Shown here: one piece after another, positions 4,944 through 63,725 of the stretch
Layout of the letters: each line of letters opens with the position of its first letter
How positions within the stretch are numbered: the first letter of the stretch is position 1
Virus record (IMG/VR): IMGVR_UViG_3300029448_000020
Coordinates: 1 to 64,000 of that record
Origin: an uncultured virus (IMG/VR IMGVR_UViG_3300029448_000020)
Lineage: Duplodnaviria; Heunggongvirae; Uroviricota; Caudoviricetes; Crassvirales
Length of the DNA stretch: 64,000 nucleotides
Strand: one strand, 5' to 3'
Notes under the pieces: generated by a model
What the model saw: the letters and a program-made list of their open reading frames with translations, nothing else
Databases searched by the model: none
What the model was told of the DNA's origin: nothing
Translations under genes and position numbers: made by a program

Positions 4944-5090
4944 ATGAATTGGGAATTTAGCATAGGGTTTTACCCTGGTATACTTTTTGGAATGAGGACA
5001 TATACCGAACGTAATCAACAAAATCACGTAATATATATACCATTAGTAGATTTTTGTTTAACAACATTTAAAAGTAAGAAGAGAAAATAA
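4944..5090 (+). CDS. small hypothetical protein (48 aa, MNWEFSIGFYPG...)
   Basis: Fills the gap exactly; its TAA overlaps the RNR ATG; translated by hand. Confidence 0.6.
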   Translation: MNWEFSIGFYPGILFGMRTYTERNQQNHVIYIPLVDFCLTTFKSKKRK

Positions 5091-6896
5091 TGAAAGAAAT
5101 TAATAGTAACATTTTATCTGATATCACTGTTCATATGAAATATGCTAAGTATGTTCCTGAGTTAAATCGTAGAGAAACTTGGAATGAATTAGTAGATAGA
5201 AATATAGCAATGCATATTAAGAAATACCCAAAGTTGGAAGTAGAAATAAGAAAAGCATATAGTTATGTATATGCTAAAAAGATTTTACCATCTATGAGAA
5301 GTTTACAATTTGCTGGAAAGCCAATTGAAATATCTCCTAATAGACTATATAATTGTTCTTACCTACCAGTTGATAGCTTAGATGCGTTCAACGAGATAAT
5401 GTTTCTATTGTTATCAGGATGTGGAGTTGGATATTCAGTTCAACAGCACCATATAAAGAAATTACCTTTCGTAATGAAACCGTTTAAAGGAAGATCTAGA
5501 CGCTTTGTTATAGGTGATTCAATTGAAGGCTGGTCTGATGCGGTAAAAGTATTAATTAGATCTTATCTTGGAGAGAAAAGAGCTTCAAGAATAGTATTTG
5601 ATTATACTGACATCAGACCTAAAGGTGCTAGGCTAGTGACATCAGGTGGTAAAGCACCTGGTCCACAGCCTCTGAAAGAATGTTTAATAAAAGTTGAAGG
5701 TATTTTAGAAGCAAAGGAAGATGGATCAGTGTTAACATCATTGGAAGTACATGATATCATATGTCATATAGCTGATGCTGTATTAGCTGGTGGAATTAGA
5801 CGAGCTGCATTAATAAGTTTGTTTACTGCTACTGACGATGATATGATATCTTGTAAGTCCGGTAATTGGTGGGAAACTAATCCACAAAGAGGTAGATCAA
5901 ACAACTCAGCTGTTTTAATGAGACATAAGATAACTAAAGAGTTTTTTATGGATTTATGGAAACGAGTTGAATTATCTGGAGCTGGAGAGCCTGGTATATA
6001 TCTTAATAACGATAAAGATTGGGGAACTAATCCTTGTTGTGAGATAGCACTAAGGCCTTTTCAGTTCTGTAACCTTTGTGAAGTTAATGTATCAGATGTT
6101 AAAGATCAAGATGATTTTAATAACAGAGTTAAAGCTGCAGCGTTCATAGGAACGTTACAAGCTGGATATACTGACTTCCACTATCTTAGAGAAACATGGA
6201 AAGAAACAACAGAGAAAGACGCTCTTATAGGTGTGTCAATGACAGGAATCGGGANNNNNNNNNNCGAAGATCATAGAGATTAATTCATCAGCTAGATGTA
6301 CAACTGTAAAACCTGCAGGGACGACATCTCTGGTCCTCGGAACGTCTTCGGGTATTCATGCTTGGCATAATGATTATTATGTCCGTAGGATGCGCGTAGG
6401 AAAGAATGAGGCTATATACGATTATCTGTTAGCATATCATGATGAATTAATTGAAGATGAATACTTCAGACCTCATGATACAGCTGTTATTTCCATACCA
6501 CAAAAATCACCTCAAGGTTCAATATTAAGAACTGAATCACCATTCGATACGTTAGAAAGAGTTAAGCGTGTTGCACAAGACTGGATACGACCTGGTCATA
6601 GAAAAGGTAGTAATACACACAACGTGTCAGCAACTATATCTTTAAAGGAAAACGAATGGAAAAAAGCAGGGGATTGGATGTGGGAAAATAGAGAATATTA
6701 CAACGGGTTATCTGTACTACCATATGATGGCGGTACATATACTCAAGCTCCGTTTGAGGACATTGACGAAGCGAAATACAATAAAATGTCTAAAGTATTA
6801 TCTAATGTAGATTTAACAAAAGTTATTGAAGCTGAAGATAACACAGATCTATCAGGTGAGTTAGCTTGCGCTGGTGGTGCCTGTGAAATTGTTTAA
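5090..6896 (+). CDS. nrdJ: class II (adenosylcobalamin-dependent) ribonucleotide reductase, interrupted by an assembly gap at 6255-6264
   Basis: YNCSY, GGIRRAA, NPCCEI, TTVKPAGT after the N-run, C-terminal ACAGGACEIV; no small subunit nearby. Confidence 0.88.
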
Positions 6897-15543: not shown

Positions 15544-18500
15544 TTATTGATGAGCATAACATTTCTTGTTTTTATTCTCAGTCTTGTTGTTACATCGTTG
15601 ACCATTAGTTTTTATAGCTGTACATCTATATTCTTTTATGCCGTCATTGTCTCTATCCATACCATCTTTAAAATCCATATGATGTATGCACTTCCAGGTT
15701 TTAGCTTTAGTTTCTGTTGTTAAGCTACATCTTTGACCATTTGATCTAATACCAGAGCATTGCACGGTTTTTATTCCTTCTTTCTTTTTTCTTTCATCTT
15801 CAGCTTTTTTATCTTCTGCTTTTCGTTTTTCTTTTTCTATTTTTTGACTTTCCCTTCTTTCTTTTTTAGCATCAGCTTTTGCTCGCTCTAGTTCTTCGTC
15901 TTTAACACCAAGACTCCACATACTCCAACCAGTAGACAAAGCAACACGCTTCCAAAGATCATGATTACCCGTTATTGCCTCTTCTAGGTTATTCATCTTA
16001 TGTTGTATTCTAGCCATAGGAAAGTTAGTTAAACCTTCTACTAAACTACTAGCTATAGATAGATTAGGATTCTCTATTCTAAATCCTATTTGTTTACTAA
16101 CACCTTTATTGTATTTTTCTGATTTTATTGCTTGGTTTAGCTTTCTAAGTTTACTACCCATAGGTGGAGATAAACTAACAGCCTGTAAAGCTATTCTTAT
16201 GTCATCTCTTTTGGCCCACGGTTGTTCTGTTTCATATTTCCATTGCTTTAATGTATTTTTTAATGCGGCTATAGCGGCACCATAAACACCAGTTCCTCTT
16301 AATAAAGTATCTATAGCTCCATCTAAAACTCTTATACCTTGAGTTCTTTTTCTTTCGTCATCTTCATCATCATCTCCTCCAAATAAGGCAAACGCTAATC
16401 CAGATTGTAGAGCACCGAATATTAGATTTTGAACAGCACCATAGTATATAATCTTAGATATGTTAGTTCTCGTATCACCTCTACCATTTTTAAGATCTAA
16501 TGCAGCCTTCTTCATTAATCTAGTCATCTGCATTGGTGTGTTTTGAAATGGTAGTATTATTCTACCTAATACACCAGCTTGTTGTCCTGATATTAAATCT
16601 GGTCTAGATGACTGTTGTGTTTCTTCTGCTATTTCTTGAAAATCTAAAAATGCTTGAGATTCAGCTTCGGCTTGAGATTTTCCATTTTTGATATAAGTAT
16701 TTATTCTATTTCTATAAAAACTAGCGCCACCAAAAGATATAGCAAAACTATCCGCTATTCTAGTTGGTGCAAATCCCTTTTCTAACATCCATCTAATTAC
16801 AGATTCTACGCTACCTCTACTTTGAGAAAACGCATCAGCTAATTCACTGTGAGCTATATCTATTTGTGACCCACCTCTTCTTTGTTTTAACATGTCAGAG
16901 TTAAATATGGTAGCAAAGTCTTTAGAAAATTGAGGTATGTTAGCAAATGCTTTAGAAGCTTTAAATATATTATTATCTCCCCAATTAATAAAGTTAACTG
17001 TAGATATTGTTTGTAGCGCTGCAGATCTTACATTAAGAAACATGATTGCTCCAACAGAACCGTTAACCCAGTTAACAAACTTATTGACTGTCTTATCTTT
17101 ACCAAGAACTCTATTAGTTCCGTTTTCCATTCTGTATAATATATTCTCTAAAGCATCTCTAAAACCAGAACCATGTATAGCCTCTATTTTATTTAAATTA
17201 TCTTTTGAAAATATTTCATTTTTATTATTTATCCAATCACCTAAAAATTGTTGTCTTCCAATTTTAACTGTATTAAATAAATCACTAGCTATACTTTCAA
17301 CCATCCAAAATTCACTAGGTTGAGTGTAACCATCTTGAGCGCGAGATATAATACCTAATGTTTCAGCAAAGTTTATTAAATCAGCGTTTTTATTAACGTG
17401 ACTTAATAGTTTCTTTTTTGTTGTTTCAGCCATACCTGGTATTTCCATACCGTTTTTATTCCATAAATATGTTCTTATAGCTGTATCAACAGTAAAGCTT
17501 GTTCCAGGTACTTTATCATCTAGTGTTTTTACTAATTTAGGATTTCTTTTTTTCAATGCAGAATACTCATTAGACATGTTTTGCTTGTATGTATTCCAAG
17601 TTCTTATACCTTTAGCAAATGGGTCAAATAAATTATCTTTAAACCATTTCATATCTTTGTCTCCTTGTTTACCTTTACCTAAAAACTTATACATTAAACC
17701 TTTGAAGTCTTCAGCTGATGGTGGAACAAAAAGATCCCATTTACCTATACCTTTTCCTCTAACTATAGCTTCACCTCTTGAAAATACTTTTTCAAAACCA
17801 ACACCAGATGTTCTTTCAATCATCTTGTTAAAATCAACACTGTGAGATCCACTTAGTTTAACTTTAGCTTGCACAACCTTAGATTTGATATCTAGTTGAT
17901 CTAAGACATTCTTAACAGCTTTTACATTTGGTAAGGCATCATCTACAAAATACATATCATTATAACCCTCTGCAAACTTCTCTAACATCCAGTCAGCTTT
18001 AGCTTGACCAGTGCTATTACCTAAACCAGTTACATTTTTTATAGGTATATAAACACCTTCACTTCTTAACCAATCATGAATAGCTTTTTGACTCTCAGGT
18101 GCTCTTGCTGTTAATATAAAAACATTATTAGGTCCATACTTTTTAATTTGATTTTTCATCTTTTGAAGTAATGGTCCTGGTTTACCTTTTGTAACTTTAT
18201 TAAAATCAGTGAAATCAAAATCCCAACCCTCTTTAGCTAATTGATCACCAACCATTGGCCATTCATTTGAAGCTATCTTTTTAGTTTCTTTACCTTTCTT
18301 AGCGATTATATAGTTTTCACTTACACCAACTGTCTCATCAAAATCAAATGCAGACATACCTTTAGTCTTACCAGTTTGACTGTGCTTAACAATATTTTTT
18401 TGAGCTTTTATTGCGTTAAAAATATTATTAACTTGAGATTGTGACTTACTCCATTTAATTTTTACAGCAGCTTGTATTCCTTTTATTGCTTTTTGTTTAG

Positions 18501-21500
18501 TAATTTTACCTGTTAATTGTTTTATTATTAAATCGTTTTGGATAGGTATTAATCTTTCTATTTGAACGTCAGTTAATTTTTTGACATTAGTACCAACACC
18601 AAAGTATTCTGCTATAGTTTGATTAGTACCAACTATTTCTAATTCATTTAAATTAACACCTTGAATAGCTAATCTAACTACAGCACCCATCCCATCTTCT
18701 AGTTTAAGTTCACCACTAATAACTCTAGGCAGAATATCATCAAACCAAACGTCTGGCGCACCATTTTTTAAACCAATTTTTTCACCGTAAATATTTTTGC
18801 TACCATCATTAATTAAATTGTCAGCTTCTATAGTTATACTTCCTTGCATCATAGAAGCTCTTATACCAACAAACGCTTTTTCAACATTACCTTCCATAGC
18901 AGCAAATAGCAAGGCAGAATGTATTTGATTAGCCGGGTGGTTGTGCTCTTCTCGCATGTTAGCCTTATAATTAGGCTTTCTTGTTTTTTGATCTATAGTG
19001 CGTATTTTATATGGAAAAGACACTCTAACTGTACTACCCATACCAGCGGAACCACCGTCTTGATAAAAAGATATAAATAATGCCGCTGCCTCAGGATTTG
19101 TTTTTAAAAACTCTTGTATTGCTACAAAATAATCTTTAAGATTATCTAGTTTATTGTCTTCTACAGCTTGTTGTTTTTCACTTAAGTTTATTTTTTTAGG
19201 TTGTTGTTTTTTATTCTTTAAGTAACCATGTCTAATTAACTTTATTTCGCTTTCAGTTAAAGAAAATGAGTCTTTGATCATGTTCATAAAAAATTCCTCA
19301 CTTCCATAAGTAGATCTACTAACACCACCTAATCCAGATTTCATTAAGTAATCTCTAAACTGAGGGTTTTCTTGTAAGAATTGTATAGTAAATCTTATTT
19401 TAGCCTCTATAACTGATTCTCCAGTGTTTTCATCGAATACACCATTATAAGTGGCTTTATCACCTTCGTATCTAATAAAGCTTTCTAGTTTACCAACTGG
19501 TATTTTAGACTTTTTAGACCAATGTTTAACCAAGTCATTGGCACCCATATAAAAACCTTCTTTGTGTTTTTCACTAAACATAACCTCAGATCGACCTCTA
19601 CCTATTTCTTTCATAGATGGTTTATCTAATCTTATTTGTTGATTAGCACCTAATGCAGCTAGTTGGATAACAAACTCTCTTATAGCTCCATCAAACTTAG
19701 TGCCTTTACTTGTGGGATTACCATCTTGATCCATTCCAAATAACTTAAAGAAATCTTCATTTGGCGCACTTTGTATTTTATCAAATCTATTTTTTTGACC
19801 TAATGATTTTATTGCTCCTTTACCAACCTCAACTCTCTTACCACTATCTCTATAAAATTCATTAAGTTTAGTATTAGCCACGCCAGTAGCTCTACCGTCT
19901 TCATCTTGAGCTTCAGGTAATATGTCTATTAAATTGTTATCTTTAGCTATTTCAGCTATCTTTTTTCTAGCAGCGCTTCTTTGTTGTCCATCTAAATCTA
20001 TGTTTTTAGAAAGCTTATTAACAGGTATACCAAATTCATTACTAAACAACTCTAACACTGGAACTAATGGTCCATTTTTAACTAGTGCTTTAGTTTTCTT
20101 GTATGATTTTTCTTTTTCTAATTTAGTCAAATCAGCATTGTCAGTAATTTCTTGTATATTATCAGGTTTTACTCCAACAATTTTAGATACTTTCTTACCA
20201 TCAACTTGTTTGGTTGCAGCGGTTGATGGTGTAGATTTTTTATCAGCAGCATCAAATCCAGCCTCCTGCAAAGCATCAAGTGAAAATGAATCTATTTGAT
20301 CTTTTAGTGATTCTAATATTTGACCATATCTTCTAGGTAGTATATCATTTACGTAAGCGCCAAACTCAGGGTTAACACTTGGATCCCATGAGTTAGCTAG
20401 TGTTATTAATTGTTCTATAAATCCACTTTGCCAATCTTGTTTTGGTATAGCTTTAGAAATATAATTAGGCACACCAGCGTCTCTAAGATTTCTTATTCCA
20501 GATTCATAAGCGTTTTTAGCTAGTTTGTTTGCTATAGCTAAATTATTCATGACTAAACCCTCTCTAATTCTAGGTGTAACAGCGTCTCTTAGGTTTTTTC
20601 TATTTATACCCTTTTTATCAGCTTGATCAACAACTTGACCATATAGATTTTTATTTTCATTAACTATCTGAACAGTGTTTTTCTTTAAAGCCTCAGACAT
20701 TTTTGCATCACGAGTCTTAGTGTCCTTACCAACAATAGATTCCATCGTTTTTGTTGTTTCAGCTATACTACTTCTACCTATAGCTTTTCTTTCTTTCATT
20801 GTTAGAGTACCAGCTTTAATTTTCTTAGCTAGCTGAGTAACAAATGTAACAGCGTCTGTTTCACCTTCAAAATTAAAATCAACATCTGATTTAGTTGCTT
20901 TTTTAATACCATTTCCAAACATCCAACCCATTAACGCACCTACACCTGTGTTCTTTTCAGATTTAAGGTCAAATTTTCCTTCAGCTACCAACTCCATGAA
21001 AACAGTTAAAGTTTCCTCTGGATCCATTCTACTACCATCGTTTCTAGTTGTATAAGCAACTAACACCTTATGTAGATTTGGATTATGTATTTGAACATGT
21101 TGCTCTATTTGTGCTGCCATACCAGCAAAAGCTTCGGGATTACTAGAAAATGCCTCTCCAAATATAGTATGACCAAGCTCATGTGTCCTTGTTTCTAGCC
21201 TATCATCTTTAGCCATATTTTCTACAACTTGAAGAGAAATAAACTTACCATCTGTAGTAGGTAGATTTACACCATGACCACCGTTTTGAATACCTTTGAT
21301 TGCTTTGTTTTTAGCTTCTTCAGAAACGTTTTCTAAATTACTTATATCTTCTACTGCCTGATTAACTGTTTGAGAGTTAATCATTGATTGAGCTAAACCA
21401 GTTTTCTTTCTTCTTTCGTTAAAAGCTTGATTTATTTCTTGAGTGTTATATATTATTCTAGCTTCTTCTTGTATTTGCTTGTCACTTATGTTAGTCTTAC

Positions 21501-24435
21501 CATCTTGAATTAACTTGTTTTCTGCTTTTTTGAATATGTTGTTTTTTCTATCTATATCAACTTTGTCTTGACTATTTATAAATCCATTGAATTTATTACC
21601 AAAAGCATTTTCATCACGTAGTGCTTCTACTAAGGTTTGGTTTTGTGCAAATTGTTTTTCAAGATTATTTAAAGCTTTGTTTTTGGTGTCATTATCCATA
21701 TTTTTATTGTTGATGATTTTTTCAGCATCAAGTCTTATGGATTGTTGTTTTGTTATTAATTTTAAATATTGTTCTGTCCACTTGGGTGATAAATTTTTTA
21801 ACTTCCCTTCTAAATTATCTAATATTTGTTTGTTCTCGTTTTTTAAATCATTAAGTTGTTTTTCTAAAACTTTTTTAGTTCCAACATCATAATTCATTTC
21901 ATCTAGATCTTTTTGCAAATCACTTATTTCAGATAAATTATGCCTATACTTTCTACTTGTTTTTGGATCAGAAAATTGGTTCATAACCAAACCTTTCATA
22001 AACGGTGTTCCGCTAAACATATAACCAAACATACCACCACTAAAAGCAGCGTGGCCCATATTTTCTGTTATTGGTTTACCTGTAAAAATATTCTGCGAAC
22101 CAGTAGTAAGAACCTCTGACATAGTTTCTAAAGCTGGATCATATAATAATTGTCTTTTACCATTTTTTATAAAGTGCTGTTTAATGCCATCTAAGCCTTT
22201 TAATAAATTACTTTTATTACCATACATAGACTTCCAACCTCTCTTCATAACTGGTAAGGTCAAAAACCTATCAAACACAACCTCAGCACCACCATATGCC
22301 GCACTGGTTATAGCTTTTTTAAACAGCGAGTTCTGTATCATTCCATCACTCTGCTCTTCTTCTTTTACCATTTCTAACCAGTTTTCTCCAGAACTACTAT
22401 ACCCAAGCATTGGTATACCTATTGTTGGTATAGCTAGCGTGGCAAATATAGCGCCTTGATTAGCAAACTCTTGAGCAACAAATGTTCCAAAGTTTTCAAC
22501 ACTAAAAGCATCTTCAAATGCTACGTCTTTTTGAAATACATTTCTAGCATCTTGCGTAGCCTTTTCTACTTGAAGCATGGTTTTGTCTAAACGCCTATCA
22601 TCAATACCCATTACTGAACCAGTTAATTTATACCCTCCATATGCCGCTTTATTAAAAATATCTAAAAACCCACTACTTAATGTAGTAACAAATTTTTCTC
22701 CATTGTTATAGTTTCTTTGTATAAGGTTATTTTTGTAATCACTATTCTCCATTTTATCAAGCATAGGCACCATACTTTCATCATACCATGTTTCATAATC
22801 TGTTTCTAGTGTTTTTATTTCATTTAAATTCTTGTTAAAGTTTTCTAAAACTTCTCTAGGAATTTTTCTACCATCTTTTAATGTTACAGCATAAGATTCA
22901 TCTTGAAGTCTTGTTAAATCACCCTTGTATTCTTTGTTTATGTCATTAACTTTATTTTCTATTTGAACTAAATGTTCATTATAAAGTTCTTTAGCTTTTT
23001 CAACTAGTTTATCTTGATCTATACCAGGATTTTCTTTTTGAACTTTTCTAACAAAATAGCTAGGATCAATTTGCTCTGGCATCCTGCTAGTATAGTGTTC
23101 TTCTATTTTTTGAATTTCACTATCCATATCCTCGTCAGTCCAAGACTCGTCACTTGATAGATGCCACATAGCTGTTGGATCGTTTAAAAAATCTATAACA
23201 GGTTTTGCTTCAATGTATTTTCTTTTTATTACGTCTGATTTAGCTTCATTAGCTATTTCAAGAGACTTAAGTTCTTTAGCTTCTTTTATATTAGCTAATC
23301 TAGCACCAATTTTTATATCGTTAATTGTACCAGTATATGAAGTACCAACTTCACTAGGATCAGCCTCACCTTTTTTATCTATAAGCAAAGAGCCAATAAA
23401 ACTATATCCCTCTACATCCTTAGAGTTCATTAGTTCAAACATTTTTTGATCTTGCAACTTATCAATGTCTTGCTTAATCATGTTTTGCTTAGCTCTTTCT
23501 TTTATTTCATTTTGTTCTGGGTTTTTATTACCCTCAGCTTTAAGTTGATTTTTAGCTAATTTTAATTCACTTTCATAAGGTTGAACTTTAGTTGATGTAG
23601 TTCTCATCCCATCTCTAGAATAATCGCTAGTAACAAGCTCCGGTTTGAATATATCTACATCGTTGCCATCGTTGTCTTTGTAATTATATTTAGATTCAAT
23701 TTCTTTTTTGTCTGCTTCACTTACGTGCAAAGGACCGTCTTTAACAGAAAGTCTTTCATAATCACTTATTAATATATTTTGATTTTCTTTAGTTTTTAAA
23801 ATATCTTCTTGACTTAGATTATTTTTTAAAAACTTAAACAACTCATTTCTTGAGTTTCTTTTTTTAAGACTAGTGTCAAAATCTGTTTTTTCTTGAAACC
23901 TACCTGGACCAAGCCCAACATCAATAACAGTTTCTTTGCCAGTTTCTTTGTGCTTAATTTTTACTTTATTTAAATTTTGAGCATCAAAAGTTTTCTCAAA
24001 CTCAAAAACATTACCATATATAGATTCCATTTGATCTATAAAGTCATCATGATTTTGATCATATATTGTGTTGTCAAGTAGATAATCATAAGCACCATCA
24101 TGCTTAATAGATTCGTTCTTTATTGTTTGAACATTTTGATTATCAATATCGTTATTTTTTAAATCTCTTTGTGATTTTTCCCATTTAATATACTCTGGGC
24201 TATCGGAAGGTAGTGATTTAACCATTTCTTCGTACGACTGTACGGTGGTTGGATCTATTTTAGGATCAACTTTTATTTCAGTTGATTTTTTTGCTTGTTC
24301 TTTTTCTAATTTAATTTGCTTTCGCAATGCGGCTTCTTCTTCTTTGCTATTAACTGTATATTCTTGACCGTCTATTGTTATCACATAAGAAGTATCGTCT
24401 TTTGGCGATTGCTCTTTTTTTGTTTCTTCTGCCAT
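15544..24435 (-). CDS. giant (2963 aa) polyvalent internal-virion/ejection protein with zincin, sigma-R2-like, HAD and C-terminal Cys/His repeats
   Basis: THELGH, WDPSVNPEFGAYV, AFDFDETV..ILTAR..FVDD, two C...NGQRC...C.HH/H repeats; follows the tail and ejection genes. Confidence 0.75.
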   Translation of the reverse strand: MAEETKKEQSPKDDTSYVITIDGQEYTVNSKEEEAALRKQIKLEKEQAKKSTEIKVDPKIDPTTVQSYEEMVKSLPSDSPEYIKWEKSQRDLKNNDIDNQNVQTIKNESIKHDGAYDYLLDNTIYDQNHDDFIDQMESIYGNVFEFEKTFDAQNLNKVKIKHKETGKETVIDVGLGPGRFQEKTDFDTSLKKRNSRNELFKFLKNNLSQEDILKTKENQNILISDYERLSVKDGPLHVSEADKKEIESKYNYKDNDGNDVDIFKPELVTSDYSRDGMRTTSTKVQPYESELKLAKNQLKAEGNKNPEQNEIKERAKQNMIKQDIDKLQDQKMFELMNSKDVEGYSFIGSLLIDKKGEADPSEVGTSYTGTINDIKIGARLANIKEAKELKSLEIANEAKSDVIKRKYIEAKPVIDFLNDPTAMWHLSSDESWTDEDMDSEIQKIEEHYTSRMPEQIDPSYFVRKVQKENPGIDQDKLVEKAKELYNEHLVQIENKVNDINKEYKGDLTRLQDESYAVTLKDGRKIPREVLENFNKNLNEIKTLETDYETWYDESMVPMLDKMENSDYKNNLIQRNYNNGEKFVTTLSSGFLDIFNKAAYGGYKLTGSVMGIDDRRLDKTMLQVEKATQDARNVFQKDVAFEDAFSVENFGTFVAQEFANQGAIFATLAIPTIGIPMLGYSSSGENWLEMVKEEEQSDGMIQNSLFKKAITSAAYGGAEVVFDRFLTLPVMKRGWKSMYGNKSNLLKGLDGIKQHFIKNGKRQLLYDPALETMSEVLTTGSQNIFTGKPITENMGHAAFSGGMFGYMFSGTPFMKGLVMNQFSDPKTSRKYRHNLSEISDLQKDLDEMNYDVGTKKVLEKQLNDLKNENKQILDNLEGKLKNLSPKWTEQYLKLITKQQSIRLDAEKIINNKNMDNDTKNKALNNLEKQFAQNQTLVEALRDENAFGNKFNGFINSQDKVDIDRKNNIFKKAENKLIQDGKTNISDKQIQEEARIIYNTQEINQAFNERRKKTGLAQSMINSQTVNQAVEDISNLENVSEEAKNKAIKGIQNGGHGVNLPTTDGKFISLQVVENMAKDDRLETRTHELGHTIFGEAFSSNPEAFAGMAAQIEQHVQIHNPNLHKVLVAYTTRNDGSRMDPEETLTVFMELVAEGKFDLKSEKNTGVGALMGWMFGNGIKKATKSDVDFNFEGETDAVTFVTQLAKKIKAGTLTMKERKAIGRSSIAETTKTMESIVGKDTKTRDAKMSEALKKNTVQIVNENKNLYGQVVDQADKKGINRKNLRDAVTPRIREGLVMNNLAIANKLAKNAYESGIRNLRDAGVPNYISKAIPKQDWQSGFIEQLITLANSWDPSVNPEFGAYVNDILPRRYGQILESLKDQIDSFSLDALQEAGFDAADKKSTPSTAATKQVDGKKVSKIVGVKPDNIQEITDNADLTKLEKEKSYKKTKALVKNGPLVPVLELFSNEFGIPVNKLSKNIDLDGQQRSAARKKIAEIAKDNNLIDILPEAQDEDGRATGVANTKLNEFYRDSGKRVEVGKGAIKSLGQKNRFDKIQSAPNEDFFKLFGMDQDGNPTSKGTKFDGAIREFVIQLAALGANQQIRLDKPSMKEIGRGRSEVMFSEKHKEGFYMGANDLVKHWSKKSKIPVGKLESFIRYEGDKATYNGVFDENTGESVIEAKIRFTIQFLQENPQFRDYLMKSGLGGVSRSTYGSEEFFMNMIKDSFSLTESEIKLIRHGYLKNKKQQPKKINLSEKQQAVEDNKLDNLKDYFVAIQEFLKTNPEAAALFISFYQDGGSAGMGSTVRVSFPYKIRTIDQKTRKPNYKANMREEHNHPANQIHSALLFAAMEGNVEKAFVGIRASMMQGSITIEADNLINDGSKNIYGEKIGLKNGAPDVWFDDILPRVISGELKLEDGMGAVVRLAIQGVNLNELEIVGTNQTIAEYFGVGTNVKKLTDVQIERLIPIQNDLIIKQLTGKITKQKAIKGIQAAVKIKWSKSQSQVNNIFNAIKAQKNIVKHSQTGKTKGMSAFDFDETVGVSENYIIAKKGKETKKIASNEWPMVGDQLAKEGWDFDFTDFNKVTKGKPGPLLQKMKNQIKKYGPNNVFILTARAPESQKAIHDWLRSEGVYIPIKNVTGLGNSTGQAKADWMLEKFAEGYNDMYFVDDALPNVKAVKNVLDQLDIKSKVVQAKVKLSGSHSVDFNKMIERTSGVGFEKVFSRGEAIVRGKGIGKWDLFVPPSAEDFKGLMYKFLGKGKQGDKDMKWFKDNLFDPFAKGIRTWNTYKQNMSNEYSALKKRNPKLVKTLDDKVPGTSFTVDTAIRTYLWNKNGMEIPGMAETTKKKLLSHVNKNADLINFAETLGIISRAQDGYTQPSEFWMVESIASDLFNTVKIGRQQFLGDWINNKNEIFSKDNLNKIEAIHGSGFRDALENILYRMENGTNRVLGKDKTVNKFVNWVNGSVGAIMFLNVRSAALQTISTVNFINWGDNNIFKASKAFANIPQFSKDFATIFNSDMLKQRRGGSQIDIAHSELADAFSQSRGSVESVIRWMLEKGFAPTRIADSFAISFGGASFYRNRINTYIKNGKSQAEAESQAFLDFQEIAEETQQSSRPDLISGQQAGVLGRIILPFQNTPMQMTRLMKKAALDLKNGRGDTRTNISKIIYYGAVQNLIFGALQSGLAFALFGGDDDEDDERKRTQGIRVLDGAIDTLLRGTGVYGAAIAALKNTLKQWKYETEQPWAKRDDIRIALQAVSLSPPMGSKLRKLNQAIKSEKYNKGVSKQIGFRIENPNLSIASSLVEGLTNFPMARIQHKMNNLEEAITGNHDLWKRVALSTGWSMWSLGVKDEELERAKADAKKERRESQKIEKEKRKAEDKKAEDERKKKEGIKTVQCSGIRSNGQRCSLTTETKAKTWKCIHHMDFKDGMDRDNDGIKEYRCTAIKTNGQRCNNKTENKNKKCYAHQ

Positions 24436-27358: not shown

Positions 27359-27404
27359 TTAATTAAATTTAACTAGTAATATAGTTACATTTTTTGTATA
27401 TTAT

Positions 27405-27803
27405 TTAGCTGCTACTTACGTTGATGTTACATGAAGCAGCAAACAGCTCTGCTTTTTCTTTAGAGTTATTTTCAAATCTAAACTTACCGTAGTAACCTAC
27501 TATTGAAGCTTCATTAACTTCTCTGCTTTTTCCAAAAAATATAAAGTCCCCAGCTTGTGGAGCTGGCGTTGATTCACCTATACTACATATTAATGTCCAT
27601 GTAGCTGTGTTATTAACGTCTCCATCTAAAGCTGTTGTTACTATATCGTTTATAACGCCTATCTCTACACAATCCTCGTTACTAATATTAACGTTAAATC
27701 CACCAACTAAAGTATTAGCTGGTATGTAGTATGCTATATCACCAGGTTGTACAGATGCGTTTAATACGACACTTGCTCCTAATTGTAAATTTATTATTGC
27801 CAT
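27405..27803 (-). CDS. tail-associated protein
   Basis: NASVQPGDIAYY, GYYGKFRFEN...ELFA; located in the tail module. Confidence 0.55.
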   Translation of the reverse strand: MAIINLQLGASVVLNASVQPGDIAYYIPANTLVGGFNVNISNEDCVEIGVINDIVTTALDGDVNNTATWTLICSIGESTPAPQAGDFIFFGKSREVNEASIVGYYGKFRFENNSKEKAELFAASCNINVSSS

Positions 27804-43245: not shown

Positions 43246-45648
43246 TTAACGAGGACCAAACTGGCCTAATCCACCTGACCCTCCTGTAATTATATCATTA
43301 CCTGATGATTCAAAACCTTTAACGGAATCACCTGATTTTCTTTGCTCTACCATTCTACTTTGATGAACAGCTTGTCTATCTACTCTTTCGTCTTTTCTAT
43401 CTTCTCTTGTAGATTCCATTCTTGAAGCTATTTCTTGTTCTTGGTTTTTTATCTTAGTATTTAATTCAAACTCCAACATCATTAATTCTTTTTTAACTAT
43501 TGCTTCTTGATTTAAGAATTTAATTTTTAAAGAATTTCTTGTTCTTTCTAGGTTTTCTTCACTTTGAGCTTTTGCTTGATTTTTTTCAATTTCAACCTTA
43601 GCCGCTTCCTGTGCTGCCATTTGTGTTTGTTGACCTTGCATTTGCATGTTTTGTGCTGCAATAGCTTGATCTCTTTCCATCTTCTTTTTTCTTTTCAACT
43701 TCAGTAGTTGATTTGCTAACTTAACGTTTTTAACTTCACGTAAATCGATTGCATCATCTAAATCAATCATTTTTTGAGCTAAAGCTTGCTGTATATTATT
43801 TTCAAGAACTTGTTTTTGTTCATCATCTGGTTGAAGTTCTATAAATATACCAAAGTCATAAAGATGTAATTCACTTATTTCTTCAAGCGTTGCTACATTA
43901 TGTGATCCAATAGCTTGTATAAATGCTTTCTTTGTTGGAGAGTATTCTATTATGTCAGCTACTCTTAACGATAAACATTCTGATGCTTCAGCAGTTAAAT
44001 ATAACATAGAGTTTAATATATGTCTTGTTGCTGTATTAGAATTTGCAGCTGCTAATTTTTGTACACCAACTAAAGCTCTTTCATCTGGAACACTAGCATC
44101 TCTAGCTTCATTTAATCCTGTCACATCTCTTATCATTTGTAAATAATAATTATATGTTTGGATTAGAGCTTGAAGCTTACCACCACCAACACCGTTTTGT
44201 ATTTGTTGAATAGGTACTTTTCCTGGATTAGGATCTCCTTCTGTTGTTAAGCTTCTACCAATAACAGAACCAGTTTGGAAAAACATGTTAAGTGCTTCTT
44301 GTGGATTATAGTTTGTTCCATTACCTAAATCAACCTCTGCTAATCCATCTGCATCAAGATATACACCATCTGGTACCATTCTTGCCATTACTTGTTGCAG
44401 TTTTAAGTGAGTTAACTGAATCATGTCAGCAAAACCGGTTATTCTACCAACTAGTGACTGTATTTTACCATCGTACATTCTAGGTGCTACAATTTGGTAA
44501 TTCATTTTAACTCTACTAAAATCAGAATCGGATCTCATCATGTTTGGCATCATTCTCCATTTTAATAATTTGTCTGCACCAAGAATATAAACACCTTCGA
44601 ATAAAACTTCAACAACTCTTTCTAATTTTTCAAAGTTTCCTTCTTGTTGTTTTTCTTCTGGAGGATTAAAGTTTTCATCTTTTTCAATAACTTTTTCAGT
44701 ACCACCAAGTGTCTTTTTTAACTTATATACATTATTAGAATGTGTTTTATAGTTAAAATACAAAACATTAACTTTGTTTTTATCTCTATGTGGAGTGTGC
44801 TTTAGTGGATCTCTAGATTTATCTACAATTTCTTTTATATCTTCTTCAGTTAAATCTCTAAACTCTTTAACTAGTTCATTAATAGGTATTTCTTTTACCT
44901 CGCCAACATAATATATGTCTTCAAAATAAGGTGAATCAGTATGAGAATAAACTAAGTTTGCTGGATCAACATATTTTACTTTAGCACCATCGCTAAAATC
45001 AAAGGTTGTTTTAGTTGCTCCAATACCTATAGTACATATATCATATATAGCTCTTCTTCTTATTAATTCATAATCGCTACCTTCTAATAAAACATTTATT
45101 GCTTGTTCTTCTGCTAGTTCAACAGCTTGTTTGTAGCTAAGCTGCATGTGAAGTTTTAATTCTTCTTCTGTATCTGGTAATTTAGTAGGATCAGTTTCAT
45201 AAAGATCTACGTTAAACTGAGCTTTAGCTAATTCATTAAACTCTTTAGCTCTCATATCTCTTAATATGGTTTCCATGTATTCAGTTCGCTTGTTAATACC
45301 ATATTGATCTTGTGCATAGCATTTAACATCAAATGTTCTTTGTGCCATTCCATTTACAACAATATCAACAAACTTAGATATTATTGGTACAGGCTTCCAA
45401 TCTAAATTAAGATATGATAAATCACCATTAATTGATAATTCATTTTTATATTTTTCTATAGATTGTTCTCCTCTAGCATAAAGTCTTAAGCTATGAAAAC
45501 TATCTAAGTTATTTCTAAATTTATTTCTATTTCCTGAAAACCATTCGTGCCTAATAGCTCTAGCTATTTTTAAACCATAGTCTTCACTAAGTTTTTCTAA
45601 ATCACTGACCGCTTGGGAGGGAAAATGTACAACAGACTCTGTTATCAT
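43246..45648 (-). CDS. portal protein
   Basis: 800 aa after TerL; LDWKPVPIISKFVDIVVNG, IRDVTGLNEARD, Gln-rich C-terminal coiled coil. Confidence 0.85.
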   Translation of the reverse strand: MITESVVHFPSQAVSDLEKLSEDYGLKIARAIRHEWFSGNRNKFRNNLDSFHSLRLYARGEQSIEKYKNELSINGDLSYLNLDWKPVPIISKFVDIVVNGMAQRTFDVKCYAQDQYGINKRTEYMETILRDMRAKEFNELAKAQFNVDLYETDPTKLPDTEEELKLHMQLSYKQAVELAEEQAINVLLEGSDYELIRRRAIYDICTIGIGATKTTFDFSDGAKVKYVDPANLVYSHTDSPYFEDIYYVGEVKEIPINELVKEFRDLTEEDIKEIVDKSRDPLKHTPHRDKNKVNVLYFNYKTHSNNVYKLKKTLGGTEKVIEKDENFNPPEEKQQEGNFEKLERVVEVLFEGVYILGADKLLKWRMMPNMMRSDSDFSRVKMNYQIVAPRMYDGKIQSLVGRITGFADMIQLTHLKLQQVMARMVPDGVYLDADGLAEVDLGNGTNYNPQEALNMFFQTGSVIGRSLTTEGDPNPGKVPIQQIQNGVGGGKLQALIQTYNYYLQMIRDVTGLNEARDASVPDERALVGVQKLAAANSNTATRHILNSMLYLTAEASECLSLRVADIIEYSPTKKAFIQAIGSHNVATLEEISELHLYDFGIFIELQPDDEQKQVLENNIQQALAQKMIDLDDAIDLREVKNVKLANQLLKLKRKKKMERDQAIAAQNMQMQGQQTQMAAQEAAKVEIEKNQAKAQSEENLERTRNSLKIKFLNQEAIVKKELMMLEFELNTKIKNQEQEIASRMESTREDRKDERVDRQAVHQSRMVEQRKSGDSVKGFESSGNDIITGGSGGLGQFGPR

Positions 45649-47879: not shown

Positions 47880-48154
47880 TATTTAGATCTTCCTTCTGCG
47901 AATCCTTTAAAAGCTGTTTTCTTTTCTTCTTCTATAGGTTTTCCTTCTAACATTGCTTCTTCTTCGTGGATTCTGTTTAATATTTCAAAAGCATCGAATA
48001 TAGCTAGTTTCTTTGTAGCTGCAGCATTCTTTAATCTATCTGCTGATATATCTTCGTCTGAATCAACTATTTCTTCTCTAGCAACTTTAATTAGCTCTTC
48101 AACTGCTTTGTGCCCAGCTTGGATTATATTCTTCTTCGTTTCCTTGATATTCAT
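47879..48154 (-). CDS. probable terminase small subunit
   Basis: Small helical ORF directly upstream of TerL, ending GFAEGRSK. Confidence 0.55.
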   Translation of the reverse strand: MNIKETKKNIIQAGHKAVEELIKVAREEIVDSDEDISADRLKNAAATKKLAIFDAFEILNRIHEEEAMLEGKPIEEEKKTAFKGFAEGRSK

Positions 48155-48686
48155 ATTTAATTGTAATAAATTTATTTAAAACCCTATATAATCTTTCTCC
48201 ATTAATAACGAACTCATATTCACTACTTGGATTAAAACCGATTAATTCTTCTTTTTTAAAAGTTCCATCAGAATATTTAATTACTCCAACTAATGGTCTT
48301 TCTTCATCTGCATTAAATTTACTTACAGACTTAATGGGTTTTACAAAACTATAACCAGGTGTAGCAATCCAATTGTTTCTTTTGTATAAATATATTTGAT
48401 CTGATGATATTATATACTTATCTTCTTTCCAATAAGATCTACTATTTTTTTCAACACCTTTCATATTTAGCCATCTTCTAAATATGTTGTGGTGTACTAT
48501 TACCTCATCACCCACGTTAATAGGTGATTGAAATAATAGTGGAGTAGCGATTACTTTTGCTTTTCTATTTACGTATTGATGATTAAATATTTCTGTATTA
48601 AGCACTAGTTCTTTATCACCAACTTTTTTAGAATTATTATAACGTTTACCAATAGGCGACACTATAAACTCTTTGTAAGCTTTCAT
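48099..48686 (-). CDS. GroES-like fold protein (possibly tandem domains)
   Basis: AKVIATP..INVGDEVIV and YSFVKP..GVIKY..EFVINGERLYRV patterns. Confidence 0.45.
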   Translation of the reverse strand: MKAYKEFIVSPIGKRYNNSKKVGDKELVLNTEIFNHQYVNRKAKVIATPLLFQSPINVGDEVIVHHNIFRRWLNMKGVEKNSRSYWKEDKYIISSDQIYLYKRNNWIATPGYSFVKPIKSVSKFNADEERPLVGVIKYSDGTFKKEELIGFNPSSEYEFVINGERLYRVLNKFITIKYEYQGNEEEYNPSWAQSS

Positions 48687-48916
48687 TAGTATTCTAAATT
48701 ATACTCAATAGATATAGCCATATTTTTATTAAAATCTTTCCAAGGTATAACTATATCACCTTTTCTAATATAAATACAGTATTTGTCTTCTTCTTCTACT
48801 ATATCACAGATTTTATGACCTCCATACACTTCCTGTCCAACAGAGTAGTGCATGGAATCATTTTTGTAATCTTTACCTATAGTAATTTTTCTGATGATAT
48901 TATTTTTCATCTTCAT
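48686..48916 (-). CDS. hypothetical protein
   Basis: IRKITIGKDYKNDSMHYSVGQ; operon fit. Confidence 0.65.
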   Translation of the reverse strand: MKMKNNIIRKITIGKDYKNDSMHYSVGQEVYGGHKICDIVEEEDKYCIYIRKGDIVIPWKDFNKNMAISIEYNLEY

Positions 48917-49184
48917 TTTCTTTAGGCCAATTTATAGTTCCGTCAGTTAAGTTTATATCATAACTACCATACTCCTTTACCATCTTATCTTGAACCATTG
49001 ATATAGTATCGTTGCCTAAAGCCAGTTCGTGTAGAAGTTTATGTTTTTGAGATTCTAATCTACCAATATTAAATTGCAAAGCGTTAATTTTGTTTGCTAT
49101 TGCTAACATTTCATCTAAGTGTTCTTTTGAAACCTTTTCTTTTCTTTCTACTACGTCTAATATTTTTTCTTTTGTTTTTGCCAT
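48900..49184 (-). CDS. coiled-coil hypothetical protein
   Basis: Ends YGSYDINLTDG; operon fit. Confidence 0.6.
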   Translation of the reverse strand: MAKTKEKILDVVERKEKVSKEHLDEMLAIANKINALQFNIGRLESQKHKLLHELALGNDTISMVQDKMVKEYGSYDINLTDGTINWPKENEDEK

Positions 49185-49213
49185 TGTATTTAATTTTATT
49201 TAATTATATTTAT

Positions 49214-49564
49214 TTATCTACATAGTGTTCTAGCTGTAATAACGCCAGCACTATTTACTTGTATGTTAAAGTATGTTACTACGCCATCGAATATTCTATA
49301 ATGGCCAGCAGTAAATGTATTTGGGTTTCTAGCTCGCTTTGATTTATACATTATATCATTAACAGCTGGTACCGAGGCACCTCCGTTATAATAATAAGTT
49401 ATATTAGTTGCAGGCGCACTTCTACAAGTATCACTTGCAGCTTGAACTGATCCTGCTATAGAACGGTAGTCTTTTGCAGCTACAACTTCTTTACGTCTTT
49501 TTACTAATACAGGTTTATTCTTACCTCTAGATTGAACAGATGAGTTTGCGTTACCTAGTGCCAT
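49214..49564 (-). CDS. hypothetical (possibly virion) protein, likely start MALGNAN
   Basis: ATG at 49564 abuts the upstream stop. Confidence 0.55.
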   Translation of the reverse strand: MALGNANSSVQSRGKNKPVLVKRRKEVVAAKDYRSIAGSVQAASDTCRSAPATNITYYYNGGASVPAVNDIMYKSKRARNPNTFTAGHYRIFDGVVTYFNIQVNSAGVITARTLCR

Positions 49565-49899: not shown

Positions 49900-49911
49900 T
49901 TTATTATTTTT

Positions 49912-50765: not shown

Positions 50766-50768
50766 CTA

Positions 50769-53781: not shown

Positions 53782-53782
53782 G

Positions 53783-58004: not shown

Positions 58005-58108
58005 TTTAATTTATTTTTATTTTTTAATAATTACACGGCTTTTTGCCGTTTTTCTATATTGTAGATAATCACATGGTAGTATAGATATTTACTAATGTAC
58101 CGGTACTT

Positions 58109-58201: not shown

Positions 58202-58232
58202 AATATATATACAATTTCATTATAATCTTTTC

Positions 58233-58270
58233 ACAAACTAACTACGACTATCATTAGATAATAATAATGT
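58233..58270 (+). promoter_or_regulatory. early element copy 1
   Basis: ACAAACTAACTACGA-ctatcatt-AGATAATAATAATGT. Confidence 0.75.
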
Positions 58271-58303
58271 AAGTAAAATATAAATAATATAAATATAATA
58301 CTA

Positions 58304-58341
58304 ACAAACTAAATACGAGAATATATAGATAATAATAATAA
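58304..58341 (+). promoter_or_regulatory. early element copy 2
   Basis: ACAAACTAAATACGA-gaatatat-AGATAATAATAATAA. Confidence 0.8.
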
Positions 58342-58576: not shown

Positions 58577-58727
58577 TATCTCGCTACATAATAGTGTGAC
58601 AATTGCTAGTTACTATATCTTTAGTTATAACGCTAATGTCACAGTATAAATAATTAATTTGCGAGTAGAGAAGTGACGAGCAATACGTGTACAAGTAATT
58701 TATTCATTAAACAATTAATATACTTTT

Positions 58728-58765
58728 ACAAACTAAATACGAAACAGTAAAGATAATAATAATGT
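58728..58765 (+). promoter_or_regulatory. early element copy 3
   Basis: ACAAACTAAATACGA-aacagtaa-AGATAATAATAATGT. Confidence 0.8.
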
Positions 58766-58986: not shown

Positions 58987-58998
58987 TTGTGAGTCGTC

Positions 58999-59036
58999 AC
59001 AATATAAATACGAACAAGTGTAGATAATATAAATGT
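58999..59036 (+). promoter_or_regulatory. early element copy 4
   Basis: ACAATATAAATACGA-acaagtgt-AGATAATATAAATGT. Confidence 0.8.
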
Positions 59037-60555: not shown

Positions 60556-60619
60556 CTTAACTGGATAAAGCAACAGCCTTCTAAGCTGTAGAGTGTGAGT
60601 TCGACTCTCACCTCGATCA
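60546..60619 (+). tRNA. tRNA-Arg (anticodon TCT)
   Basis: GGTCGAG/CTCGATC acceptor, GCTT..AAGC D-arm, ACAGC-CT TCT AA-GCTGT anticodon arm, GTGAG-TTCGACT-CTCAC T-arm; CCA not encoded. Confidence 0.9.
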
Positions 60620-60656
60620 CAAATTAAATACGACAACTCGTAGATAATATAAATAT
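60619..60656 (+). promoter_or_regulatory. early element copy 5
   Basis: ACAAATTAAATACGA-caactcgt-AGATAATATAAATAT followed by ATG. Confidence 0.8.
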
Positions 60657-60876: not shown

Positions 60877-61080
60877 ATGAATAGAATTAAAATACTTAAA
60901 AACGGGAACTTAGTAATGACTAAGTCAGATGTAGAAATAACTTATAGACCATACAAGGTTGGTGATTTACCAAAAGACTTTGGCTGTATAGAATATAAAA
61001 GACCAAGTGGCAAGCTAAGAGATGGTATTGACAACTGGTTCAAGTACAAAGGTTTAACTTACGTAGCTATTACAAAATAA
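60877..61080 (+). CDS. hypothetical early protein (likely start MNRIK)
   Basis: Stop codon lies inside element copy 6. Confidence 0.6.
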   Translation: MNRIKILKNGNLVMTKSDVEITYRPYKVGDLPKDFGCIEYKRPSGKLRDGIDNWFKYKGLTYVAITK

Positions 61081-61109
61081 ATACGACAAGTAACAGATAA
61101 TAATAATAT
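61072..61109 (+). promoter_or_regulatory. early element copy 6
   Basis: ACAAAATAAATACGA-caagtaac-AGATAATAATAATAT(G). Confidence 0.8.
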
Positions 61110-61816: not shown

Positions 61817-62068
61817 ATGATAGAAGAATTAAAAGATTTAGAACAAGAAGCGATGGATGAGTTAACGCCTGAAGACTATATGGCAATCACCTCTAATGTA
61901 ATGGACGACTATGATCGACCAATATACCAAAGTGGCTACATAGATGGCTTACAAACAGCTATAAGAATGCTTAGTAGTGATGATACTACCATGAGTTATA
62001 CAATGGAGATTGATGAGATGTTTGGTGAGGACTATGCTAAAGTAGATGAAGACGAAGACACAAAATAA
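61817..62068 (+). CDS. acidic hypothetical protein
   Basis: YQSGYIDGL motif; stop inside element copy 7. Confidence 0.6.
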   Translation: MIEELKDLEQEAMDELTPEDYMAITSNVMDDYDRPIYQSGYIDGLQTAIRMLSSDDTTMSYTMEIDEMFGEDYAKVDEDEDTK

Positions 62069-62097
62069 ATACGATTGCTTCAAGATAATAATAATAT
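62060..62097 (+). promoter_or_regulatory. early element copy 7
   Basis: ACAAAATAAATACGA-ttgcttca-AGATAATAATAATAT. Confidence 0.8.
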
Positions 62098-62326: not shown

Positions 62327-62731
62327 TGCGGGGCGAGGGACGTGTAGAACTTAAAGATGGGGTTAATCCGTTTGGACACCTCGGTTCATCTAACCTTCTT
62401 GCCGCAGTGACCTGACTATATCTATGTATAAAGATGAGGTTGGTCACACGTGAACTAGGTGGTTCAATGTAGGATAAAGCATTCAAGGGAGTGGGAGCGA
62501 AATCTCCAGTTAACTATAAACTACTCGGTCTTGATGGTACCACACCTACAGTTCACAACAGCTTGAAATGGACAAAACAGGGTGATACGCACCGCGTAAT
62601 TTGCCTGACGAGGTGGGAGGTTCGATTCCTCCCCAAGCTGCAAGATATGTGCCTAAATGTGAAATTCATAGCAAGGTCGCAAGTACCTGCAGAAGGCTTG
62701 TATGGATAGAGTTAAAGCCTCTATACATATC
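62327..62731 (+). ncRNA. structured non-coding RNA cluster of five abutting domains, one tRNA-like
   Basis: Closing stems TGCGG/CCGCA, GTGACC/GGTCAC, GTGAACT/AGTTCAC, CAGCTTG/CAAGCTG, GATATGT/ACATATC; GC content visibly higher than the flanks. Confidence 0.65.
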
Positions 62732-62769
62732 ACAAACTAAATACGAATAAAGTAAGATAATAAATACAT
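62732..62769 (+). promoter_or_regulatory. early element copy 8
   Basis: ACAAACTAAATACGA-ataaagta-AGATAATAAATACAT(G). Confidence 0.8.
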
Positions 62770-63279: not shown

Positions 63280-63696
63280 ATGGCAACAAGAGCAAAAATA
63301 CATATAGCTAGGCGTGAAGAAGGAGTATCGTTTAGTGACATACCGGAGAAAGTTATGGTAAGTATTTATAATCATTGGGATGGTTACCCTGAAGGATTAG
63401 GTGTGAAATTAGCCTCTTATCTTGATGATTTTGTAATAACAAATGGCTTAAGTAGAGACAATGAGTATGTCTTCAATGGATTAGGCTGCATGGCGGCTTC
63501 AATTATAGAACATTTAAAAGATGGTCCAGGAAACGTGTATATAGAAGATCCAGAACGTCCTCACACTTGGATAGATTATGATTATTACGTATGGGGTGAT
63601 GACCATAAAGATATATGGATTAGTATATTTGATGGATCTGAGTGTATATTTGTAGGAAAACCAAAAGCTTTATTAAGTAAATACTACACAAACTAA
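63280..63696 (+). CDS. phage protein with Y.HWDGYP motif
   Basis: MATRA..SIYNHWDGYPEGLG..IDYDYY; stop inside element copy 9. Confidence 0.7.
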   Translation: MATRAKIHIARREEGVSFSDIPEKVMVSIYNHWDGYPEGLGVKLASYLDDFVITNGLSRDNEYVFNGLGCMAASIIEHLKDGPGNVYIEDPERPHTWIDYDYYVWGDDHKDIWISIFDGSECIFVGKPKALLSKYYTN

Positions 63697-63725
63697 ATAC
63701 GACGACCTATGGATAATATAAAAGA
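63688..63725 (+). promoter_or_regulatory. early element copy 9
   Basis: ACAAACTAAATACGA-cgacctat-GGATAATATAAAAGA. Confidence 0.75.

Follow-up and report, generated by a model that had tools for sequence, protein, structure and literature searches.

A sigma-70 domain 2 homolog inside a giant virion-block protein of a flavobacterial-type phage, and its possible part in early transcription

Why would the last large gene of a phage virion block encode a piece of a sigma factor? The DNA considered here (the window) covers positions 1 to 64,000 of a virus record that is 67,197 bases long. Its minus strand carries a virion block of terminase, portal, major capsid and tail proteins, its replication genes lie on the plus strand, and it also encodes GroEL. 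A preliminary description reported a sigma-70 region 2-like segment within a 2963-aa protein of the window, and fold comparison, profile analysis, ESM Atlas features and complex prediction bear this out. The parts of the protein that enter the argument are as follows:

15544..24435, minus strand: giant protein of 2963 aa and putative ejected cargo, encoded by the final large gene in the virion block
20761..21258, minus strand: zincin-like HExxH domain, aa 1060-1225, with HELGH at aa 1085, directly N-terminal of the sigma domain
20293..20697, minus strand: sigma-70-like domain, regions 1.2-2.4, aa 1247-1381, placed by fold, profile, Atlas and predicted complex
20389..20442, minus strand: region 2.2-like helix, aa 1332-1349, in predicted contact with beta' residues 274-321
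20302..20388, minus strand: region 2.3/2.4-like stretch, aa 1350-1378, in which two positions are aromatic and nearly invariant and a third is basic
19585..20217, minus strand: domain B, aa 1407-1617, compact and basic (pLDDT 88.3, pTM 0.86)
17866..18363, minus strand: HAD-like phosphatase domain, aa 2025-2190, with the motifs DFDET ... T ... K ... DD
15856..17838, minus strand: conserved C-terminal region, 42-60% identity, which served to gather relatives independently of the sigma motif

The likely host matters to what follows. Of the 85 phage records in GenBank that match the major capsid protein, 68 are assigned to Flavobacterium, 15 to Cellulophaga and 1 to Maribacter; 1 is uncultured. 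Shine-Dalgarno-like words precede 29 of 633 and 8 of 335 start codons, at or below the background of 6%, and this scarcity agrees with a published account of Bacteroidetes (PMC6847099). We infer that this marine phage is of a flavobacterial type. Its gene set resembles that of the 'group 2' putative Flavobacteriaceae phages (Nishimura 2017, PMC5332604), for one member of which a sigma-70 gene is recorded (PMC5332604). A virion module, GroEL and a giant last structural gene are common to group 2, Pervagoviridae phi38:1, Elemovirus, Maribacter phage Panino and the window phage, whose major capsid protein is 35-43% identical to those of the others.

The peptides quoted in the preliminary description are present in the open reading frame 15544..24435 (minus strand): IREGLVMNN at aa 1290 (nt 20568-20542), DWQSG at aa 1334, DPSVNPEF at aa 1351 and FSLDA at aa 1384 (nt 20286-20272). 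However, the domain starts earlier than the segment delimited there, with region 1.2-like helices from aa ~1247, and the parallel drawn between FSLDA and the SLD motif of sigma factors is weak, the S/D-I-D columns being less than 35% conserved. Nor was a sequence-level match to Sigma70_r2 obtained: the window protein alone has none in Pfam or PHROGs, and a profile made from 30 flavobacterial sigmas gives its own segment a score of -2.2 bits.

Thus the sigma likeness is not significant for the window sequence alone, but it is significant at the level of the family. HHalign of 110 non-redundant members against the 30 flavobacterial sigmas gave P 4.2e-4 (probability 34%) with regions 2.2-2.4 aligned in the correct register, compared to P 0.13-0.32 for three controls. 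The family HMM retrieved 7 of the 30 sigmas at E < 1e-3, a result of modest strength, and in the reverse search the sigma profile scored at least 5 bits in 7 of 136 segments and in none when the segments were reversed. Features from the ESM Atlas named PF04542 in 25 of 30 named matches (score 0.95). Sigma70_r2 was also the Pfam family touched by most members (5 of 57 relatives at E <= 1, best 0.0024); no member reached the Pfam cut-off, and the giant open reading frames of 49 records held 5 Sigma70_r2 matches below it. When family profile A1 was run against PDB sequences, a sigma chain (8b3z) ranked second of 3 matches, with an E no better than 1.1.

Structure comparison points the same way. 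The AlphaFold model of aa 1240-1639 has a pLDDT of 83.7, and a VIA-align fold search of it over 48,161 chains placed sigma factors, aligned over regions 1.2-2.4, at ranks 1-13, so the best matches are not the unrelated helical bundles that might have been feared. The best was sigma32 (8hkc_E; rmsd 3.1, 108 residues aligned) at a Z of 8.1, a value in the range that the tool calls common for helical domains; the first non-sigma row had a Z of 6.4. Foldseek, which had been suggested as a check, was less clear: neither the sigma-domain model nor that of domain B returned anything at E <= 0.001 in the PDB, but many of the weak rows for the sigma-domain model are sigma chains. The one strong viral Foldseek match, A0A218MLT5 from an uncultured virus, is apparently a family member.

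We also examined whether the domain is predicted to dock on the polymerase as sigma factors do. Its predicted complex with residues 1-350 of the F. psychrophilum beta' subunit scored 0.83, against 0.01 for the best control, on a scale where the score mark was reached by 116 of 157 solved pairs and 2 of 215 mismatched pairs. Contacts agreed between runs in at least 84%, and partner pLDDT was at least 83. The closest predicted contacts join aa 1334-1344, in the 2.2 helix, to beta' 297-321, which we take to be the clamp helices, within an interface covering beta' 274-321. Because sigma-beta' complexes are solved, the score may derive from known holoenzymes, and passing this test shows likeness to such complexes.

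Could the likeness nevertheless be due to chance, an unrelated helical bundle in a structural protein? The missing single-sequence match, the middling Z and the low HHalign probability would allow it. The 13 top sigma rows, the correct register over regions 2.2-2.4, the Atlas naming, docking predicted through the 2.2 helix and the matching promoter class described below all speak against it, and we consider coincidence extremely improbable. The fold, profile, language-model and complex-prediction evidence supports the segment as a homolog of sigma-70 domain 2, though not as a complete sigma. It shares its fold over about 100 residues with PF04542 domains (sigma32 8hkc_E, pro-sigmaK 8vjl_B, RpoS 5h6x_B), and both have the region 2.3 aromatics. 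In contrast to them, it lies inside a giant protein, has no recognized sigma-3 or sigma-4, is followed by an unmatched domain and is only 10-18% identical.

Relatives were gathered in two ways: the sigma region gave 55 proteins, and the C-terminus alone gave 135 loci, of which the best 80 were taken. In GenBank phages, tblastn of either region gave no match. A profile was iterated on the segments behind the zincin-like domain, leaving out L009 and P0002 as duplicates; 4 loci had no zincin-like domain in the open reading frame. This profile, which was built from the same sequences, detected the domain behind the zincin in 127 of 136 relatives, the lowest at 19 bits, compared to 11 bits or less elsewhere in the proteins or when the segments were reversed. 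All 75 full-length giants chosen by the C-terminus have the zincin; 69 match the profile, and in the remaining 6 the motif can be seen by eye. When 1.84 billion representatives (clusters at 50% identity) were searched, 505 came up at E <= 0.001, and among the 149 new representatives listed, the zincin lies upstream in 123 of the 127 with room for it.

Within the domain, the DP..F..Y motif singled out in the preliminary description is kept in homologs. Across 110 non-redundant relatives, whose mean identity is near 20%, the W of the WDP column is aromatic in 99% and the P is present in 69%; all members (100%) have a hydrophobic residue in the F column (L 75%, F 14%); the Y column (FGAY) is aromatic in 99%; and the basic position of the region 2.3/2.4-like stretch is R or K in 85%. 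The two aromatic columns align with the F of FD and the Y/W of FSTY/FSTW in sigmas, and the WW pair of primary sigmas, present in L198, is absent. Placing the conserved Arg at the position of Q437, which would have explained the G at -12, was dropped when the register proved to be one residue off.

Domain B follows the sigma domain after a stretch that is an acidic linker in 79% of 246 relatives, and is itself net positive in 91% of them. Folded alone, it had a best Z of 3.8 in the fold search, with no sigma listed. The window protein has no Pfam match to sigma region 4 after domain 2, and HHalign against the phage's own stand-alone sigma gave P 0.11. A sigma-4 helix-turn-helix was tried as an identity for domain B and is unsupported, with no listed fold match. 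We regard domain B as a candidate reader of an upstream promoter element. In one pair of genomes (G014 and G019) domain B is common (0.59) and the sigma-2 core is not (0.06), which looks like cassette swapping of the domain.

From N- to C-terminus the giant comprises a helical part, the HExxH domain, sigma-2, domain B, a variable part, the HAD-like domain, the conserved C-terminus and two Cys/His repeats. A P-loop kinase (PF13671) is an additional part in some relatives, and giants bearing the sigma domain are 2,000-3,900 aa long. The HExxH motif is kept in 261 of 274 aligned relatives. A Pfam scan gave the domain no match, and its name rests on the motif, from which we take it to be a zincin; its position suggests a possible release protease for the sigma domain. 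The region at aa 2025-2190, presumably a HAD phosphatase by the motifs read from its sequence, is found in 59 of 75 giants and has a weak match to PF11019 (E 6.6e-4).

Is such a protein carried in the virion? The giant gene occupies the same position as that of phi18:3 gp123, which is annotated as a virion protein by MS/MS, and the two show weak similarity over aa 628-1004 of the giant's N-terminal part (E 2.3e-5, among 6 sequences). Crassvirus giants at this position are described as ejected virion cargo, polymerase included (PMC10172136, PMC7886860). By gene position and distant relatives, then, the giant is probably injected with the phage DNA, and it has the traits of polyvalent or virion cargo, being large, multi-domain, encoded in the virion block and equipped with an HExxH peptidase motif. 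The virion RNA polymerase motif [AGS]D[FY]D[GI]D (DxDGD) was found in none of the 75 giants and none of the 18 genomes; a non-giant open reading frame of G463 has one match to the pattern.

If the domain acts as a sigma, there should be promoters for it to read. Nine copies of a class I consensus, TTRCAAAnTAAA-TACGA-N9-GATAAT, head early genes on the plus strand:

58231..58262, plus strand: class I promoter 1, predicted +1 at 58269
58302..58333, plus strand: class I promoter 2, predicted +1 at 58340
58726..58757, plus strand: class I promoter 3, predicted +1 at 58764
58997..59028, plus strand: class I promoter 4, predicted +1 at 59035
60617..60648, plus strand: class I promoter 5, predicted +1 at 60655
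61070..61101, plus strand: class I promoter 6, predicted +1 at 61108
62058..62089, plus strand: class I promoter 7, predicted +1 at 62096
62730..62761, plus strand: class I promoter 8, predicted +1 at 62768
63686..63717, plus strand: class I promoter 9, the last before the stand-alone sigma gene

The upstream ACAAAnTAAA is conserved along with the nine TACGA-N9-GATAAT copies, for which shuffles give 0.06. Among gapped word pairs, TACGA/GATAAT ranked first in 6 of 18 genomes, and a matrix search of the 18 found 80 sites in 13, all 80 on the early strand, with 0 in shuffles; the 5 genomes without sites are partial records. Taking GATAAT as -12..-7 puts the +1 base outside the search pattern, and that base is a purine at 81 of 81 sites and at 82 of 83 in 11 further genomes. 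Because this exceeds the 51-57% at other GATAAT words, the class I sites are very likely promoters. A search of the open literature found no account of such a promoter.

Such promoters might instead be served by a host sigma, alternative or primary and perhaps with an activator, leaving the embedded domain a side role or the status of a remnant. Hosts have many ECF sigmas, and exact class I copies do occur in Flavobacteria chromosomes: the strict pattern was found in 38 stretches of GTDB genomes, many of them short or phage-like contigs in MAGs, and 8 Flavobacteria MAGs carry 1-2 copies before accessory genes and no homolog of the sigma module. The copy in L171, for example, is single, exact and chromosomal, between recG- and parA-like genes. 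However, one or two copies are too few for a regulon, and none of 400 sampled genomes from the host-type family contains the relaxed pattern. The sigmaA of F. psychrophilum recognizes TAnnTTTG, and the text (as opposed to the logos) on the six motif classes of that species gives none like class I (PMC9723704). The likely hosts thus appear not to use this promoter; the domain is, moreover, retained in nearly every giant, and reading by a host sigma seems quite unlikely. The chromosomal copies may be captured phage DNA or host promoters triggered by infection.

A second sigma and a second promoter class complete the picture:

G000:66045-66803, plus strand, in the record beyond the window: stand-alone full sigma gene, regions 2 and 4 above the Pfam cut-off
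58065..58093, minus strand: candidate late (class II) promoter, AGTARAT-N14-GTRAYTAT, heading the late operon
27381..27408, minus strand: candidate class II promoter, some 3 kb upstream of the giant gene

The stand-alone sigma is present in 12 of 18 genomes. All nine class I sites of the window lie upstream of its gene, and five sites in relatives fall downstream of it. Ten genomes together hold 20 sites of the class II motif AGTARAT-N14-GTRAYTAT, whose -35/extended -10 spacing is ordinary; 15 of these sites are on the late strand and 4 immediately follow the sigma gene, and shuffled sequences contain none. Having been seeded by eye on the same genomes, class II is the weaker of the two classes.

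Embedded domain, class I array and stand-alone sigma occur together in the window phage, whereas the cultured members tested have none of these. The sigma-2 profile found no match in the giants of phi38:1, elemoF, Panino, phi18:3 and a spring-water phage (best 4.9 bits), and the genomes of four of these relatives have 0-1 class I sites and no stand-alone sigma. Conversely, when 25 records were picked by the class I promoter alone, 13 matched the sigma module profile, and of 11 of the other 12, 4 matched a deeper profile and 7 showed the zincin and motif by eye. The stand-alone sigma occurs in 18 of these 25 and in 12 of 14 near-complete records; the two near-complete records lacking it are linear, at 93-94% completeness. 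In no record were the embedded and stand-alone sigmas separated.

The reading that we favor, and think reasonably probable, is that an injected sigma starts a two-sigma cascade on the host polymerase. It builds on direct observations (the fold, its conservation, the two promoter classes and their positions, the lack of a polymerase motif and the scarcity of class I in the host family). The giant would be packed in the head and ejected with the DNA, as its gene position and distant relatives suggest, and the sigma-2 domain would perhaps be freed by the neighboring HExxH protease. It is predicted to bind the beta' clamp of the host core, where its conserved aromatics would open class I promoters at their GATAAT -10 element. 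Domain B would replace sigma-3/4 and read TACGA at -26..-22 and the upstream elements, the weakest step in the scheme. Class I transcripts would then make the stand-alone full sigma, which would read the canonically spaced class II promoters and so switch on replication and late genes.

Rates of divergence count against this cascade. Over 11 genomes the sigma-2 core averages 20% identity (the zincin 30%) and the stand-alone sigma 64%, and GATAAT is unchanged despite the divergence of sigma-2. Conservation alone would fit the stand-alone sigma as the class I reader, although promoter variation follows neither sigma (Mantel test, 8 genomes, p 0.30-0.43). These data suit a different role, in which the injected domain is a decoy that blocks or displaces host sigmas at the beta' clamp and reads no promoter, shutting off the host or handing the core to the phage sigma; class I would then be read by the stand-alone sigma after leaky first expression. 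Very fast divergence and swapping fit an arms race at a host surface, the stand-alone sigma is as conserved as the promoter, and the domain has a predicted core-binding face and no recognized sigma-4. On the other hand, the region 2.3 aromatics, which melt DNA in sigma-70, are 99% conserved at positions needless for a pure decoy. Class II promoters already fit the stand-alone sigma, the 9-base spacing from TACGA would be at odds with sigma-4 geometry, and a search of the early strand ahead of the stand-alone sigma gene turned up no paired Bacteroidetes -33/-7 promoter. We give the decoy role a minor but real chance.

It is also conceivable that the giant is cut in the producing cell and that the freed domain works there, late, as a sigma that is never injected. 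The late-strand position of the giant gene and its adjacent protease motif would suit this, as would the fact that packaging is deduced from distant relatives only. Nevertheless, the canonical spacing of the late promoters fits the full sigma, the promoter class still in want of a reader is the early one, and crassvirus giants at this position are virion cargo (PMC10172136); we regard late action as very unlikely.

If the injected-sigma cascade holds, how does it compare with known systems? The phage-encoded sigmas of group 2 jumbo phages are described, in the passages devoted to them, as free proteins only (PMC7824862). Like the proposed embedded domain, phage sigmas redirect the host core to phage promoters in a cascade; the embedded domain, unlike them, would arrive with the DNA and serve early genes, in a phage that has a free sigma as well. 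T4 gp55 and SPO1 gp28/gp34 are free phage sigmas made after infection that serve middle or late genes. The virion RNA polymerases of crassviruses (phi14:2; crAss001 gp47/49/50) and N4 are likewise giant cargo encoded after the tail genes and used for early transcription (PMC7886860, PMC10172136), but the window giant would supply specificity only and leave catalysis to the host. Polyvalent proteins (Iyer et al. 2017, PMC5512222) and T4 Alt offer a further parallel as injected multi-domain proteins with an HExxH peptidase, swappable cargo and host transcription as a target; the main text of PMC5512222 uses the word 'sigma' 0 times, and Alt modifies the polymerase chemically and supplies no promoter-reading domain. 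We propose, by analogy, that the embedded domain has the function of a phage sigma and the mode of delivery of a virion polymerase. Our search of openly available papers found no packaged or embedded phage sigma described.

The known ways for phages to start early transcription use the host holoenzyme, a host polymerase that has been chemically modified, or a polymerase packaged with the DNA. If confirmed, a sigma domain carried in the virion would be another strategy, and in a large family (505 clusters at 50% identity). Taken jointly, we hold it slightly better than an even chance that an injected sigma-2 with a new DNA-reading fold turns the host core onto a private promoter, TACGA-N9-GATAAT, in a clade widespread among aquatic flavobacterial phages; that this promoter then launches an ordinary phage sigma; and that some hosts have captured it, so that their accessory genes fire only on infection. 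Bacteroidota would gain an orthogonal sigma-promoter pair. The system would also bring to light a new fold, possibly a substitute for sigma-4, and would point to host promoters responsive only to infection. Since a 380-residue module and a candidate promoter are defined, the claim can be tested without culturing the phage.

Finally, PADLOC identified no clear defence system among 16 proteins encoded behind the chromosomal class I copies; it did return a weak TerB-region match and trypsin-domain matches.

The sigma-2 domain is accompanied by other cargo in the 2963-aa giant, the last protein of the virion block, and the matching giant of a cultured phage has cargo of its own:

17866-18363, minus strand: HAD-like phosphatase domain of the giant (relatives: P0011 and P0015-P0020)
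L144:28228-33717: CDS0069, the syntenic giant of the cultured Maribacter phage Panino, with cargo unlike that of the window's giant

An AAA_33 kinase is also present in the giants of many relatives, and the pairing of HAD-like phosphatase and AAA_33 kinase is one that we take to resemble the polynucleotide kinase/phosphatase enzymes of RNA repair. The cargo of the Panino protein includes an annotated methyltransferase and, near aa 640-790, a stretch that is presumably ADP-ribosyltransferase-like.

In some relatives, giant genes appear as additional or divided copies. The contig of one relative, G024, carries two giants on opposite strands that share 54-58% identity in the C-terminal half only:

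G024:2574-12944, plus strand: the additional giant ORF, 3457 aa long, encoding both a zincin and a sigma-2 domain

This contig may be a chimera of two phages. In a Flavobacteriaceae MAG (G059), a single bin holds five giants of the same family (contigs C7, C18, C19 and C25); class I (early) promoter arrays accompany two of the five, both on one 117-kb contig. The giant gene is split into two ORFs in G032 (48081-56389) and G463 (43432-49627), and the sigma gene of G477 has a frameshift (55767-56520); all three may reflect sequencing errors.

A stand-alone sigma gene, which is 53-94% identical among relatives, lies in the window's own virus record and has a class II (candidate late) promoter site directly behind it:

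G000:66045-66803, beyond the end of the window: full sigma-70-family gene (also L153:2546-3301)

The early region includes the following:

58358-58576 and 59058-59291, plus strand: first two early ORFs, paralogs of about 75 aa (..KRFVIRKSL.G..)
59590-59650 and 60540-60620, plus strand: tRNA-like sequences amid the early genes, read by eye

Relatives of the paralogs also lie behind class I sites in two other loci (L186 and L187), and these small proteins are candidates for host take-over functions.

Exact class I copies were also found in Flavobacteria MAG chromosomes, one or two in each (L171, L162, L164, L166, L172, L189, L154/L156, L173 and L183), with a purine at the predicted transcription start in 9 of 11:

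L171:2999-4011: class I copy preceding a TerB-domain gene, with recG-like and parA-like genes on either side

The others lie upstream of variable cassettes encoding secreted-looking proteins. Possibly, the chromosomal copies are host promoters triggered by infection, or captured phage DNA.

Two runs of N occur in the window (20 N in the whole genome), at 63877-63886 and near 6270, the latter breaking the ribonucleotide reductase gene into flanking ORFs (5090-6283 and 6390-6896). A related phage (MW202828; L145/L151) carries about 15 copies of an inverted motif, GTGTCG...CGACAC.
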